Of a stretch of DNA of 32,000 bases, positions 7,129 through 14,900 are shown piece after piece. Origin of the DNA: Candidatus Harpocratesius repetitus. GTDB lineage: Archaea; Asgardarchaeota; Lokiarchaeia; Sigyniarchaeales; Promethearchaeaceae. A program made the position numbers and the translations under genes. Positions within the stretch are counted from its first letter, which is position 1. Each line of letters begins with the position of its first letter. The notes beneath the pieces were generated by a model. The model had not been told where the DNA came from. It saw only the letters and a list, made by a program, of their open reading frames with translations, and did not search any database. The DNA lies in NCBI GenBank assembly GCA_021498095.1, contig JAIZWK010000001.1, positions 2,700,001 to 2,732,000 on the forward strand. The letters run 5' to 3'.

Positions 7129-9300
7129 TTATTGTAATGGCTTAATGATTTCAATTAATTCCGGTAAATCCATTCCAATCTTTTGTAAATGTTCAATTGT
7201 AGGAACTCCATTCTTATTCCAACCACGGCGTTCATAAACTGCATCCATCAATTTTTCATATTGTTCAAGTCGGTATTTTCTAACAATAGCAACTTTTTCC
7301 GCAATGGATTTTCCCGTCGGATCAATACCAATCAGTTCTTTCATTTGTTTATCGTATCTTTCTTCCCGGGATTTATATTCTTCTTCAGTAACAGGTCCTA
7401 CTGCACGATACGGAACTGCATCGTGTTCTCTAAGTCCTTTTCCTAAACGAATATTAAAAATACGTTGAAAATTATAGACACGCTCTGATTGCAAAATTAA
7501 TTTTTCAGGTGTTAATTTCTCACCTGTCACTCCCTCATATATCCAGCAATAATTCTCTACATGCTCAGGAACTTTTGCTGCCTCAGTAGGAGGATAATTC
7601 TTATTACTTGGGGGGGTTATATCGTTCCATGGTAATTTGCACAATCCAACTAAGCCAAACCATGTACGAAACATGGGAAAATAATGTAAAGCTTCAGCTT
7701 TATCCTCAAAACTTGGTATTTGGTTGTTTACTTGATCCATAAAAATCAACCATGCTTCATCATGCTGAGGACCCTTATTAGTAAAGCCGTATCCTCCTTG
7801 TTGAGCGAGAGATTCTTTACTTTGATATTCAGAATATTCCAATCCTTTCTGTTCCATACCAATATCATTTACGAAATTTGGATCAGCGCCATATTTTTCA
7901 ATAAATAATTTTTTCATTCTGAGAATCCCCTGACCAATTACAACACCAAAACCTTCGCCTCGAGCCATTTGATGCAAAATCTCTAAAACGGCAGCGCTGT
8001 TTCCGAATTTAAGTTCAATTCCACCTGTTATTTCAGAATTAAGTATACCATTTTCGTAACATTCCATCGCAAATGCAGTGCTGGTGGCAAATGAAATTAT
8101 ATCAATACCGTATGTATCACAGTAGAAATTAGCTTCTAAAATAAACTGAGGATCAAAACAGCCTAAGTTTGCACCTAATCCTGCAGCATTTTCATATTCT
8201 GGCCCATCAACAGTAACCTTTTGACCCGCATAAGGCCCAGTCTTTAATTCAAATTTATCTGCAGCTTTAGAACAAGCCATTGAACACCCGTACCAGCATC
8301 CATCAGGCAAACCTTGAGTTAAGTAATTGTCACGAAACACATTGGAATATATCTTTTTTGCATCTGGATGGCCTCCAAATTTAAAGTTGTGAGTGGGGAG
8401 CAAATCATATTCATCCATAATTTCAATAATATTTGCAGTTCCAACTTGGCGCATTCGATTTTGTTTATCGTCATATTGTTGAATTTCACGATGCAATCGT
8501 AATCCTGCCTTGTTAATTAATGCTTTATTAACAGGATTGTTAAGATTTCCTTTAGTGGCTTTATTTTTGATTACAATTGCTTTAATCTTTTTATCTCGAA
8601 ACACACGGCCAATTCCACCCCGTCCCGCTTGTTTTACTCGAACTACTTTTCGACGAGGATCGTAAAATGAAAAGTTCAGCATTCCCATTCGAACAAATTC
8701 TGCGGCTTTTCCAGATGAAACGACAGAAATATTTCTTTTATCATATTCATCATCAGCGTACATTTCGGTTAGCTGTTCCGCCAATACATGACTATCAATT
8801 GCTTCTAAAGGAGCTTCTTCAATTTTTATTGAACCTGATGTTCCATCAATGAAAATTATTATGTCATTTTTTGCTTTTCCTTGAATTTCAAGTGCATCCC
8901 AGCCAGCAAATTTTAGAAAAGGTCCAAAATATCCTCCTACATTACTATCAATAACAATATCTGTTAATGGTGAAATCGATACAAGTAAAGATTTACCCGC
9001 CCCAGGATATTGAGTAATACCACAAATTGGTCCAGTACCGATGACAATCTCGTTTTCAGGATCATGCCATTTTGTTGTATTTTTAACTGCTTTCCAGAGC
9101 AAATATAAACCAAATCCTTTTCCTCCAATGAATTTTTCTTTCATTTCTGGAGTAACATCTTTTGATTCAATAACATTATTAGAAATGTTAATGTAAAGTG
9201 TTCGATTGCAATACCCTTTTTCAATGGGTCGTAATTCATAATTCCACTCTTTTAACAAAGTTCGGGCTTCTTTTAGTTTTTTAATACTTTCATTCTCCAT
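7129..9300 (-). CDS. aor: Tungsten-containing aldehyde:ferredoxin oxidoreductase family enzyme
   Basis: FIGGKGFGL, DSNVGGYFGPFLKFAGWDALEIQGK, QAGRGGIGRVF, CWYGCSMAC, DGPEYE, CDTYGIDIIS, MEQKGLEYSEY, GPQHDEA, VGLCKLPW, YERRGWNKNGVP. The start is probably MENESIKK at 9300. Confidence 0.93.
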   Translation of the reverse strand: MENESIKKLKEARTLLKEWNYELRPIEKGYCNRTLYINISNNVIESKDVTPEMKEKFIGGKGFGLYLLWKAVKNTTKWHDPENEIVIGTGPICGITQYPGAGKSLLVSISPLTDIVIDSNVGGYFGPFLKFAGWDALEIQGKAKNDIIIFIDGTSGSIKIEEAPLEAIDSHVLAEQLTEMYADDEYDKRNISVVSSGKAAEFVRMGMLNFSFYDPRRKVVRVKQAGRGGIGRVFRDKKIKAIVIKNKATKGNLNNPVNKALINKAGLRLHREIQQYDDKQNRMRQVGTANIIEIMDEYDLLPTHNFKFGGHPDAKKIYSNVFRDNYLTQGLPDGCWYGCSMACSKAADKFELKTGPYAGQKVTVDGPEYENAAGLGANLGCFDPQFILEANFYCDTYGIDIISFATSTAFAMECYENGILNSEITGGIELKFGNSAAVLEILHQMARGEGFGVVIGQGILRMKKLFIEKYGADPNFVNDIGMEQKGLEYSEYQSKESLAQQGGYGFTNKGPQHDEAWLIFMDQVNNQIPSFEDKAEALHYFPMFRTWFGLVGLCKLPWNDITPPSNKNYPPTEAAKVPEHVENYCWIYEGVTGEKLTPEKLILQSERVYNFQRIFNIRLGKGLREHDAVPYRAVGPVTEEEYKSREERYDKQMKELIGIDPTGKSIAEKVAIVRKYRLEQYEKLMDAVYERRGWNKNGVPTIEHLQKIGMDLPELIEIIKPLQ

Positions 9301-11381: not shown

Positions 11382-12767
11382 CTAATTTTTTGAATTTCTC
11401 AATTTATGGTATTTTAGCATTATTTTTAATGCTCGAACACCGCGTTCCACTTCATTTACAAATACGGGAATATGTAACTCATTGCCAATCTGTACAATTC
11501 GTTGAGCTCCTTCTTCTTCCGCTTGAATCAATATTGTAATTATGGGTTTATCTGGATAAAGACGCTTAATTGTTTTAAAAATACCAAAATCAAATTCAAT
11601 TTCGGTAAAAAATTCTAATGCTAAAAATAACGATCCTACATTAGGATCTTTTAATAAAGATTTACTAGCATCAAAATAAACTTGACAAACTTGAGTTCCA
11701 ATGAATTCTTTTGGAGGCCAATAATCTACAGGGTTTCCAAGTTCACAAGTCGATCCTCCAATATTTTTTAAAATGTATTTTCTATTTTCGTCATGAAGTG
11801 ATGCTAAATGAATCCCTTGAAGTCGCATCTCAGCTATTAGAAGATTTATCGCGCCAGATGATGGTCCAATGATACCCACTTGATCATTTTGAGGCGTTGG
11901 GCACCATAAAAAGAGTTTTGCAAATTCAAATAATTCAATGTAATTTTCAACTGAAATTGCTCCCGCCTCTTGTATTTCATTAAAATTTGCTTGGTTTTTT
12001 CCGACATACTTAATTAAAACTGGCTTTTTCCCTCGATAGGCATGCATTACATCAATAAATTCATGAGTAATTTTTTTCATATACAAAGTTATAACTTGAG
12101 TTTGAGAATCATTAAATAAAAATTCAAGCATTTGAGCTTCAGTAATTTGGAGTTGTTTTCCGATATGAAAAACCTTAGAAAATGGAACAGGTTGTGGTAA
12201 ATTCCACCATCCACATGCCCCTGATAATCCACCACTTTGTGCTAAAAAACTTACTCCCGATTTCCATCCTTGTTTTCGGCTGATCTGAATAATATGTGAA
12301 CGAATTGGGATAATTGATGATGTAAAACCCGACAAAAAATCAATGATTCCAATCATCGAAGGTCCTAACATCTTTATATGATATTTATCAAGAATAGCTT
12401 TAATTTTCTGAGACAATTTCAGATATTCTTCTTTTGTTGTTATATATGCTAAATCAGTTTGGAGTAAAATATAATGAATTTCGGCTTTACCTAAAGTTTC
12501 TAATATTTCAAGCAAATTATGCCTTGTTAAAATAATCGCCAAATCTGGACGAGGTTTAATTGTTCCAATCTCATCAATACTATTTATGGTTGGAATTCCC
12601 ATTAACGATTTTGTATAAGGATGAACAATTGAAATATGAGCATGATAGCGCGCTTCTAATAAATTTTTAAGCACAATACCATTAGCCGTATATTCATTTC
12701 GAGAAGATCCGATGATTAAAATTGAGTGAGGCGCAAAAAATAGAGAAAGATCTTGATAAATACCCAT
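11382..12767 (-). CDS. NDP-forming acyl-CoA synthetase (ACD) alpha-subunit-like CoA-binding protein, lacking the phospho-His segment
   Basis: LFFAPHSILIIGSS (CoA-binding), MLGPSMIGI, SFLAQSGGL, FSKVFHIGKQ and GNPVD are present. The SHTGxLAG motif is absent. Confidence 0.85.
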   Translation of the reverse strand: MGIYQDLSLFFAPHSILIIGSSRNEYTANGIVLKNLLEARYHAHISIVHPYTKSLMGIPTINSIDEIGTIKPRPDLAIILTRHNLLEILETLGKAEIHYILLQTDLAYITTKEEYLKLSQKIKAILDKYHIKMLGPSMIGIIDFLSGFTSSIIPIRSHIIQISRKQGWKSGVSFLAQSGGLSGACGWWNLPQPVPFSKVFHIGKQLQITEAQMLEFLFNDSQTQVITLYMKKITHEFIDVMHAYRGKKPVLIKYVGKNQANFNEIQEAGAISVENYIELFEFAKLFLWCPTPQNDQVGIIGPSSGAINLLIAEMRLQGIHLASLHDENRKYILKNIGGSTCELGNPVDYWPPKEFIGTQVCQVYFDASKSLLKDPNVGSLFLALEFFTEIEFDFGIFKTIKRLYPDKPIITILIQAEEEGAQRIVQIGNELHIPVFVNEVERGVRALKIMLKYHKLRNSKN

Positions 12768-12880
12768 AAAGAAACTAGGATTGAGATAATCTTAAGTTTT
12801 GCTTTCTTGAAAATGAAGAAATTCAGACTTATGGAAATAAAATCACATAAATTAGAAACCCCCATTTTTTAAAAATTAAT

Positions 12881-12967
12881 GGTGAAGTAGCTCACCTAAA
12901 GGTAATAAAATTACCAGCTGCAGGTCAAAGACCATAACTATCCCTTAATAGGGATAGTTTATTTCCT
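12881..12967. ncRNA. Candidate structured RNA: four consecutive hairpins followed by a T-tract
   Basis: GGTGA/TCACC (12881-12896), GGTAAT/ATTACC (12901-12915), GGTC/GACC (12923-12933), and a 10-bp perfect stem AACTATCCCT/AGGGATAGTT (12936-12959), then TATTTCCT. It forms a locally GC-richer island in an AT-rich spacer. Confidence 0.4.
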
Positions 12968-13208
12968 AATTAATTAATCATTTTATATATTAATATAAAA
13001 ATTAAACCAAAGAGAAATATTTTTGTCGAGAGTCTTCATGTATATTCTTTATTAATAAAGGATTTTTTCATTTTATATCCATCTTGATATTTTTTCATCA
13101 ATTCTTTTCATTAATCTTCTTCATTAGCTTTTCCCCGCTTTAATTCCAAAAAAATTTTATTTCATGATGAATTTATCTTCATAATAAATACTTCAATATG
13201 TGAATAAC

Positions 13209-13796
13209 ATGGCTAAACGAAGATGGAAATGCTTCTCAGTTTTCAAGGTAAAAGGTTACCAAAAAAAACGAAGTCGGTCTCACCGACGTGAATTCGTTCG
13301 TGGGGGAGCAGATTCTAAAATTACTCGATTTGATATCGGCAATCGCAAACAAATTGATTGGGACGTCAAAATTGGGATGATCTCCGATCATAATATTAAT
13401 ATCAGTCATTTTGCACTCGAAGCTGTTCGAACTTCAATAAATCGTCGTCTTATTAAAAAAATTGGGCGAGCAAACTTTCACCTGAAGATTCGCAAGCATC
13501 CTCACACTACATATCGCGAGCACGCGATGATGTCCTTCGCTGGAGCGGATAGGCTTTCATCTGGAATGCGTAACGGTTTCGGTCGACCGGTTGGAAAGTG
13601 TGCGCGCACTCGAGCAGGCGATATAATTATGGAATGCGGTTGTGCGATGAAGCACGTAGAACAAGTAAAGCGTGCTTTTCAGATTGCTGATAAGAAACTT
13701 TGTACAACCACAAAAATTGTGATTTTAGACACAAAAGATGAAGATATGATTGCTCGAATTCCATTACCACATATCAGCAAGTTTGTGACCGTTTAA
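13209..13796 (+). CDS. rpl10e: 50S ribosomal protein uL16 (L10e)
   Basis: REFVRGGADSKITRFDIG, ALEAVRTSINRRL, FHLKIRKHPH, AGADRLSSGMRNGFGRPVG. The start is ATG at 13209 (MAKRRWKC). Confidence 0.95.
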   Translation: MAKRRWKCFSVFKVKGYQKKRSRSHRREFVRGGADSKITRFDIGNRKQIDWDVKIGMISDHNINISHFALEAVRTSINRRLIKKIGRANFHLKIRKHPHTTYREHAMMSFAGADRLSSGMRNGFGRPVGKCARTRAGDIIMECGCAMKHVEQVKRAFQIADKKLCTTTKIVILDTKDEDMIARIPLPHISKFVTV

Positions 13797-13985: not shown

Positions 13986-14900
13986 TTAACTTTCTAAAAC
14001 GAACTCTTCAGATTCAATTTGTTTGTTTTCGCATTCAAATAAATGATCTTTTGTATGATGTATAAGGTATAAAGAGCCACCAGCAACTATACCCCAAATA
14101 AAAAGCCAAATAACATGTCTAAGTAGTTCATTAGTTAGCATTTCAATTCCTTCAAAGAATAATCCTGCAGTTATATTAATTGCGGCATGTGCTAAAGTTG
14201 GCATCCAAATGCTTTTCGATTTTAAATATAGAAAACCTTCAAACAAGCCCATAAAAATAGTTGAAAGAGGCATAAGAACAAATGCGCCTAATATTGGATT
14301 ATCTGGGAAATTATAACCCATAAGAATAATAGGTATGTGCCAAAATCCCCATATTAATCCTGTGAGAAGAAAGCCTTTATTTATTCCGAATTTATTCAGT
14401 AATTTTCCTTGTAAATAACCGCGCCATCCAAATTCTTCTCCAAAAGTATATATCATTCCGAATAATGCTCCAAATATAATCGTTATAATAATATTTAGCA
14501 CGAAATAACCAATTTTCTGTGGATGTATTCCTAACAATAGCCCGACTTCATTCCCAATTATAACTATTCCATCTTTAAATTGAAATAAATTTTCAGATAT
14601 GACGCCCCAATTAAAAATCACAATTATTCCAGAGGAAAGGAATACGACTAAAAGTGGTGTAAAAATTGCAATTATACTTAACCACCATTTACTTAAGCCC
14701 CAACCAACATTTTTAAAACCTTCTTTTGTAAGTATTCGAAATCCAACAGCTGTTAGCGCTGGAAACCACATCAATATCAAGGCAAAAGATCGAAAATTTT
14801 TTGATTCAATTCCACCAGTAAAAAATATAATTAATTGAAGCGCATAGCTAAGCGAAAATAACACAATAATATAGATTAAGTAGTTCTTTTTCAATTTCAT
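13986..14900 (-). CDS. CPBP/Abi (type II CAAX, Rce1-like) intramembrane metalloprotease
   Basis: FGEEFGWRGYL (EE..R motif), WGFWHIP and LAHAAIN, with multiple TM helices. Confidence 0.9.
   Translation of the reverse strand: MKLKKNYLIYIIVLFSLSYALQLIIFFTGGIESKNFRSFALILMWFPALTAVGFRILTKEGFKNVGWGLSKWWLSIIAIFTPLLVVFLSSGIIVIFNWGVISENLFQFKDGIVIIGNEVGLLLGIHPQKIGYFVLNIIITIIFGALFGMIYTFGEEFGWRGYLQGKLLNKFGINKGFLLTGLIWGFWHIPIILMGYNFPDNPILGAFVLMPLSTIFMGLFEGFLYLKSKSIWMPTLAHAAINITAGLFFEGIEMLTNELLRHVIWLFIWGIVAGGSLYLIHHTKDHLFECENKQIESEEFVLES

Follow-up and report, generated by a model that had tools for sequence, protein, structure and literature searches.

A rare four-hairpin intergenic element in Candidatus Harpocratesius repetitus, a candidate inserted small structured RNA

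The 441-nt spacer separating the divergent genes for an ACD-like CoA ligase and rpl10e in Candidatus Harpocratesius repetitus (genome G000, a single contig of 4.36 Mb that supplied the reference copy) contains an element of approximately 88 nt composed of four tandem hairpins and a U-rich tail. The element is located at 2.713 Mb of the genome, within the 32,000-nt stretch of DNA analyzed here (the window, in whose numbering coordinates are given unless another locus is named). Its fold has been preserved by compensatory change in one other genome, at a non-syntenic position, and it forms no part of an rpl10e leader. The favoured interpretation, to which about an even chance is assigned, is that the element is a self-contained, inserted and patchily distributed unit specifying a stand-alone small structured RNA, most likely from the plus strand. 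A preliminary description of this DNA had put forward a riboswitch-like leader, a ribosomal protein leader or an independent sRNA. The last of these is the sole survivor, with the qualification that the element looks inserted, that its transcript is putative and that the strand is modestly favoured rather than fixed.

Re-reading of the sequence matched exactly the four tandem hairpins and the linkers TAAA, AGCTGCA and AT of the preliminary description. All of these features are given for the plus strand, with hairpins spanning 12881–12959 and the U-rich tail reaching approximately 12968. Hairpin H1 (12881–12896, GGTGA-AGTAGC-TCACC) consists of a 5-bp stem, GGUGA/UCACC, and a 6-nt loop, AGUAGC, and is joined by TAAA to H2 (12901–12915, GGTAAT-AAA-ATTACC), the pair probability of which is 0.94. 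The linker AGCTGCA then leads to H3 (12923–12933, GGTC-AAA-GACC) and AT to H4 (12936–12959), a terminator-like hairpin with a perfect 10-bp stem and a UAAU loop followed by TATTTCC. The U-rich tail (12957–12968; UUUAUUUCC plus 2 nt, with the counterpart UUAUUUUCC in the second genome) is probably a transcription stop. The surrounding divergent spacer is AT-rich, as originally described, the flanks having a G+C content of 12–25% compared with 40% for the element.

The fold of four hairpins is beyond chance. Folding of a 116-nt slice gave z-scores of -5.6 for the plus strand and -3.7 for the minus strand, with none of 200 shuffled sequences folding as well as the native region, and the minimum-energy structure of the G000 element folded with exact ends was the four hairpins at -28.7 kcal/mol. 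When the whole 4.36-Mb genome was scanned for three GGT...ACC hairpins within 70 nt, only the element and one Gly-rich coding repeat were found.

A single homologue was present on contig 79 of G006 (positions 8074–8158), a genome of the same family and a different genus. The two copies are 76% identical and their similarity begins and ends at the element boundaries. The RNAalifold consensus for the pair was precisely the four hairpins, with all 21 aligned pairs standard in both copies and three of them changed on both sides: the H1 closing pair from A-U to G-C and, among the 8 aligned pairs of H4, one from C-G to U-A and one from U-A to C-G. The outer pair of H4 can also be seen by eye to change from A-U to U-A if the alignment gap is moved. 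Of the 19 substitutions between the copies, the six located in stems are all compensated, the substitution rate being 0.14 in stems and 0.30 at unpaired positions. In 200,000 trials, 19 random substitutions left every pair intact at a frequency of 6.5e-5, a test that is reasonably independent because the hairpins were defined from G000 alone. Two sequences are too few for formal covariation statistics, and in a shuffle control 58 of 500 shuffles reached the observed value. Covariation in relatives, to which the preliminary description had looked, is represented by these compensatory changes in one second genome. Together, 76% identity and strictly compensated stems imply long-term selection on the fold, unlike a dead relic.

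Conservation outside the paired positions is uneven. The H1 loop AGUAGC is identical in both copies, whilst the other loops and linkers vary with the exception of the 16-nt block UUACCAGCUGC(R)GGUC (12910–12926), comprising the 3' strand of H2, the linker and the 5' strand of H3, which is the longest stretch conserved between the copies in the alignments. The stem of H3 is invariant, its loop reading AAA in G000 and ACC in G006, and H4 of G006 is extended by a G-U pair. In H2 of G006 the GGUA/UACC stem is retained, the loop being 2 nt longer than in G000 and the stem 2 bp shorter, which reduces the hairpin from 15 to 13 nt. Between the copies, no reading frame survives the 2-nt indel in this loop, indicating that the element is not coding, and no small ORF is shared by the two loci. 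A 19-codon plus-strand ORF (12813–12872, MKKFRLMEIKSHKLETPIF) ends 8 nt before H1; it has no counterpart in G006 and is probably a chance occurrence in AT-rich DNA.

As GGU...ACC is common to all three of the 5' hairpins, register-shifted pairings are possible. In G000 the pair probability of H1 was 0.56, with a competing nested helix, GUAGC(U)/(A)GCUGC, at 0.42, and for the 5' domain of G006 the fold of lowest energy was a long irregular hairpin that UGGU/ACCA closes, with an advantage of 4 kcal/mol over the three hairpins. The H1 loop sequence GUAGC (12887–12891) is a candidate 5' strand of a pseudoknot whose partner would be GCUGC at 12917–12921. These form five pairs, including one U-G, that are invariant in both copies, with a duplex energy of -4.9 kcal/mol compared with only -2.2 kcal/mol for the minus-strand equivalent. 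The 5' domain may be drawn as an H-type pseudoknot in which S1 is H1, loop 1 is a single nucleotide, S2 is GUAGC/GCUGC and an A-rich loop 3 carries H2. Such a structure, its S2 composed of invariant bases that do not covary, would reconcile the folds of the G000 and G006 copies and would explain the invariance of both the H1 loop and the H2–H3 linker.

Comparison with known RNAs bore out the initial impression that the element is not a tRNA and belongs to no recognized family. The window gave no match to Rfam 15 at gathering thresholds, and when matches were accepted up to an E value of 10 the best of those overlapping the element were DdR6 (19.3 bits, threshold 90), IR_84 (17.4 bits, threshold 51) and L20_leader (14.9 bits, threshold 58.7), all with E values above 1. 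ARAGORN found no tRNA in the window, the tRNA model was absent from matches at E values up to 10, and the hairpins are consecutive, with no closing acceptor stem conserved in G006, unlike a cloverleaf with its acceptor stem, 7-nt anticodon loop and T loop. Over the whole of G000, ARAGORN reported only 21 tRNA genes, including one of undetermined anticodon and one tRNA-Sec, most tRNA genes presumably having introns or unusual structures that escape its detection. Archaeal C/D box sRNAs carry a C box (RUGAUGA) and a D box (CUGA) at their ends with C' and D' boxes inside. Neither box was found within 12881–12968 or in the G006 copy, and the match to DdR6, a snoRNA model, is at chance level. In archaeal H/ACA sRNAs an ACA box follows a hairpin that has an internal pseudouridylation pocket and a K-turn or K-loop, whereas all four stems of the element are uninterrupted by internal loops and no conserved ACA follows any hairpin.

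Identities other than RNA families were also considered. A replication origin or terminus was rejected on the basis of GC-skew extrema at 0.53 and 2.39 Mb, away from the element at 2.713 Mb. The H1 stem GGUGA/UCACC resembles Shine-Dalgarno/anti-Shine-Dalgarno pairing, but the motifs are buried in stems, and a mimic of this kind was discounted; GGTGA is located upstream of only about 4% of long ORFs in G000, where the 3' end of 16S rRNA is GGAUCACCUCCU. No complementarity of 16 nt or more to an antisense target was detected elsewhere in the G000 genome, and the neighbourhoods of the G000 and G006 copies shared no genes and contained no virus or defence hallmarks.

Searches for further copies, suggested at the outset on a genome-wide scale, indicated that the element is single copy in G000, as it is in G006, and that these are the only two of the 154 genomes of the order in which it occurs. 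A covariance model built from the two copies found nothing further in 14 genomes of the family, 151 of the order and a phylum sample of 151, and blastn against all 154 genomes of the order identified no homologue beyond that in G006. Weak covariance-model matches with E values of 0.06–0.9 lacked the conserved loops and look like chance. Exact-pattern scans of viral contigs (two scans) and metagenomes (one scan) produced chance matches that failed the covariance model, whilst a scan of the genome collection with a pattern that was G+C-rich was dominated by chance matches in high-GC bacteria. No longer related element was found in the G000 genome and no diverged copies were found beside the histone orthologues of four relatives. 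The only match in phage and plasmid records by blastn was a borderline one in the Methanosarcina sp. Kolksee plasmid NZ_CP009523.1, where 45 nt of an unannotated intergenic segment (14269–14313) match the H2-linker-H3 region at 82% identity. With an E value of 0.2, a covariance-model score of 8 bits and loss of the hairpins, this match was treated as chance, odd though it is.

Direct repeats of 6 bp lie on either side of each copy in identical geometry, ATTAAT in G000 (12875–12880 and 12969–12974) and TCTTTT in G006 (locus L010, 1496–1501 and 1591–1596), which are possible target-site duplications. In AT-rich parts of G000 the chance of such a repeat is 0.15% (0.0015) at fixed geometry, rising to 5% with generous slack, and the joint chance of both flanking repeats is estimated at about 2e-4. 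The element seems to have arrived by insertion, a reading drawn from the sequence that is based upon these repeats, the absence of the element from close relatives, its patchy and non-syntenic distribution, and the length of the G000 spacer, which exceeds those of congeners by 150–185 nt. No empty site was recovered from relatives, whose spacers are too diverged, the G006 flank being unique. Of the properties expected of a MITE, multiple copies and terminal inverted repeats are both lacking, the ends GGTGAAG... and ...ATTTCCTA not being inverted repeats, and no transposase is encoded near either copy. Contig 79 of G006 (9.8 kb) looks like accessory DNA in the region of the copy, where several ORFs have no Pfam match and one ORF of 260 aa is without a homologue among the genomes of five relatives. 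Immediately preceding the copy is the NYN nuclease gene, for which G010 offers no close counterpart.

No G-U pair is present in any of the aligned stems and stem pairing consequently neither fixes the strand nor excludes a role as single-stranded DNA. Promoters were sought with a BRE/TATA matrix derived from the upstream regions of G000 tRNA genes. H4 is followed directly by TTTATTTCC in G000 and TTATTTTCC in G006, a U-tract as expected of an sRNA gene, and the tRNA genes of G000 have the same kind of 3' tract (TTTTATTC, TTTATTTTG). An independent archaeal sRNA gene would have its own BRE/TATA about 25 nt before the transcript start, and TATA-like strings are suitably spaced upstream at 12847–12854 in G000 (ATAAATTA) and 22 nt before the GG start in G006 (TTTAAATA), both scoring below 4 bits. 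With this matrix no convincing element promoter was detected on either strand; weak sites of 4–5 bits were confined to the minus-strand side, and no site of at least 4 bits lies upstream of the element on the plus strand of G006. Across the genome 0.9% of positions score at least 4 bits, a chance-level frequency. Two pairs can form on the plus strand only, namely the U-G pair of the candidate pseudoknot and, in G006, the G-U pair that extends H4. The U-rich tail, the tRNA-like 3' flank, TTTAAATA, the pseudoknot and the G-U extension, all sequence features, modestly favour the plus strand.

The setting of the element bears on whether it might belong to a neighbouring gene. Distances in the preliminary description hold, with 114 nt separating the element from the start codon of the minus-strand ACD-like gene (11382–12767, start at 12767; Pfam Succ_CoA_lig and CoA_binding_2) and 250 nt separating it from the ATG of rpl10e (13209, plus strand; Pfam Ribosomal_L16). 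The divergent ACD/rpl10e pair is also present in G001 and G002, of the same genus, where examination of the orthologous spacers (256 and 292 nt), a check envisaged from the start, revealed no counterpart of the element. Only the rpl10e-proximal 100 nt of the spacer, including CCAAAAAAATTTTATT, is common to the three genomes. This part contains the rpl10e BRE/TATA promoter (13149–13163, plus strand), conserved in all three, outside the element and approximately 180 nt downstream of it, and the sole site in the spacer scoring at least 8 bits. It follows that the element lies outside the rpl10e transcript. The block TTTTCCCC...CCAAAAAAATTTTATT at 13120–13163, shared by the same three genomes, likely represents this BRE/TATA, and a TTGTCGA(G/C) motif at 13015–13035, also shared by them in otherwise unalignable spacer, may be a regulator site. 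A weak Rfam match to the C/D snoRNA model snR62 at 13160–13229 on the plus strand (30 bits, E 0.3) arises from AUGAUGA at 13164–13170; as it overlaps the 5' region of rpl10e and conservation does not extend to G001 or G002, it is probably chance. In G006 the copy is located 50 nt after the NYN-domain gene and approximately 600 nt from a convergent histone gene, with neither rpl10e nor ACD adjoining.

In favour of a riboswitch-like or ribosomal protein leader of rpl10e are the position of the element, upstream on the same strand, and its combination of a structured domain with a terminator-like hairpin at the end. However, the downstream position of the conserved rpl10e promoter and the occurrence of the gene pair without the element in G001 and G002 led to rejection of both readings. 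The element is likewise missing upstream of rpl10e in G006 and G010, the sequence contains no anti-terminator complement to H4, Rfam offers no match and the homologue is non-syntenic, making a leader function for rpl10e extremely improbable. Regulation of the divergent ACD and rpl10e promoters could alternatively be exerted through double-stranded DNA palindromes acting as operators for a dimeric regulator, since three palindromes with common GGT...ACC ends lie in a divergent promoter region. Against this, the inner spacing differs among the three sites, half-sites drift in a compensatory manner, the G006 homologue sits between other genes and the pair in relatives lacks the element. The reduction of H2 from 15 to 13 nt, shifting its spacing by 2 bp between genomes, also argues against a fixed-spacing DNA operator. 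The earlier preference for RNA stems over such an operator is upheld by this loop-size change and by the compensatory changes in G006, and operators are considered very unlikely.

Of more weight are two interpretations that accept the element as a unit separate from rpl10e. It might be transcribed from the minus strand, as an sRNA or, in G000, as a structured 5' leader in which H1 and a T5 run serve as attenuator of the His-less ACD-like gene. Suitably spaced weak matrix sites on the minus-strand side in G000 (12993–13006, 4.9 bits) and G006 (1640–1653, 4.6 bits) are consistent with this, as are a terminator scan flagging minus-strand H1 followed by ATTAATTTTT as terminator-like, with the T5 run in G000, and the absence of any site of at least 4 bits from the interval separating the element from the ACD start codon. 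However, sites of this strength are as frequent as chance predicts, ACD orthologues in G001 and G002 are without the element, the minus strand in G006 runs into the 3' end of the convergent NYN gene with no U-tract nearby, and neither the candidate pseudoknot nor the G-U extension is available to a minus-strand RNA, which is regarded as unlikely but a live rival. The flanking repeats, differing in sequence and matching in geometry at the two copies, together with patchy non-syntenic loci and the longer G000 spacer, would suit a mobile DNA element that is non-autonomous, or the relic of one. Its hairpins would then function at the DNA level, for instance in single-stranded form as targets of a transposase supplied in trans, with any RNA incidental, and the exclusively Watson-Crick stem pairs are as DNA hairpins would require. 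Single-copy occurrence in both genomes, the lack of terminal inverted repeats, of a related longer element and of a nearby transposase, and the long-term selection on the fold noted above make such an element unlikely, if a possibility to be taken seriously. A block running from a GG start to a U-tract and bounded by 6-bp duplications with no inverted repeats could also be a transcript-sized mobile unit, either a SINE-like retroposed small RNA gene or a new miniature element moved by its hairpins, whose master copy may sit on an unsampled Asgard virus or plasmid. This is a decidedly speculative proposal, and to our knowledge SINE-like retroposition is without precedent in archaea.

Under the favoured interpretation of a stand-alone small RNA, the element would encode a structured plus-strand transcript of approximately 88 nt, inserted as a unit and part of neither neighbour's mRNA leader. 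In the 5' domain of this putative RNA, three short hairpins would share the closing sequences GGU...ACC, and a pseudoknot joining the H1 loop GUAGC to the H2–H3 linker GCUGC, both invariant, may compact them, whilst the strong 10-bp H4 and the U-tract would end and stabilize the transcript. We infer that the invariant loop and the 16-nt linker block might contact a protein or short-seed RNA targets. Asgard small RNAs are almost uncharted, and the element contributes to them a compact candidate whose fold is defined. Should the flanking duplications prove genuine, it would also be an unusual example of one small structured RNA unit having moved between genomes of different genera. Were it merely a rare orphan sRNA or mobile relic, its importance would be local, and it should be annotated as non-coding lest the long ACD/rpl10e spacer be misread as a regulatory leader.

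The element can be placed alongside several known systems. The preQ1-II riboswitch is built as an H-type pseudoknot whose loop 3 accommodates a hairpin, and the candidate geometry of the element, with 5 bp in each of S1 and S2, a 1-nt loop 1 and H2 carried in an A-rich loop 3, is similar. However, the element has no Rfam match at E values up to 10 and no conserved downstream regulated gene, and its candidate pseudoknot consists of invariant bases rather than covarying ones. Its modular layout, a 5' functional domain preceding a strong 3' hairpin and U-rich tail, resembles that of bacterial trans-acting sRNAs of the Hfq/Sm type, from which the element differs in showing no extended seed complementarity to any G000 gene. 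Small structured repeats of MITE-like character are known in prokaryotes, including bcr1 of the Bacillus cereus group, BOX and Correia elements. The element is like these in being a non-coding, hairpin-rich sequence of approximately 90 bp with short flanking direct repeats at differing intergenic sites, but it is present as one copy per genome rather than many, and terminal inverted repeats and a partner transposase were not found. The GC-rich intergenic sRNAs of AT-rich archaea (HgcC/E/F/G type and the intergenic sRNAs of Methanosarcina) differ from it in that the element has no sequence or structure match in Rfam, occurs in two genomes rather than clade-wide, has no recognizable canonical promoter and is flanked by direct repeats. 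Like them, it is a short, strongly folded, non-coding G+C island in an AT-rich spacer, with a U-tract at its end. The element would be a new and rare member of the broad class of structured small RNAs encoded between archaeal genes, and its hint of mobility is unusual.
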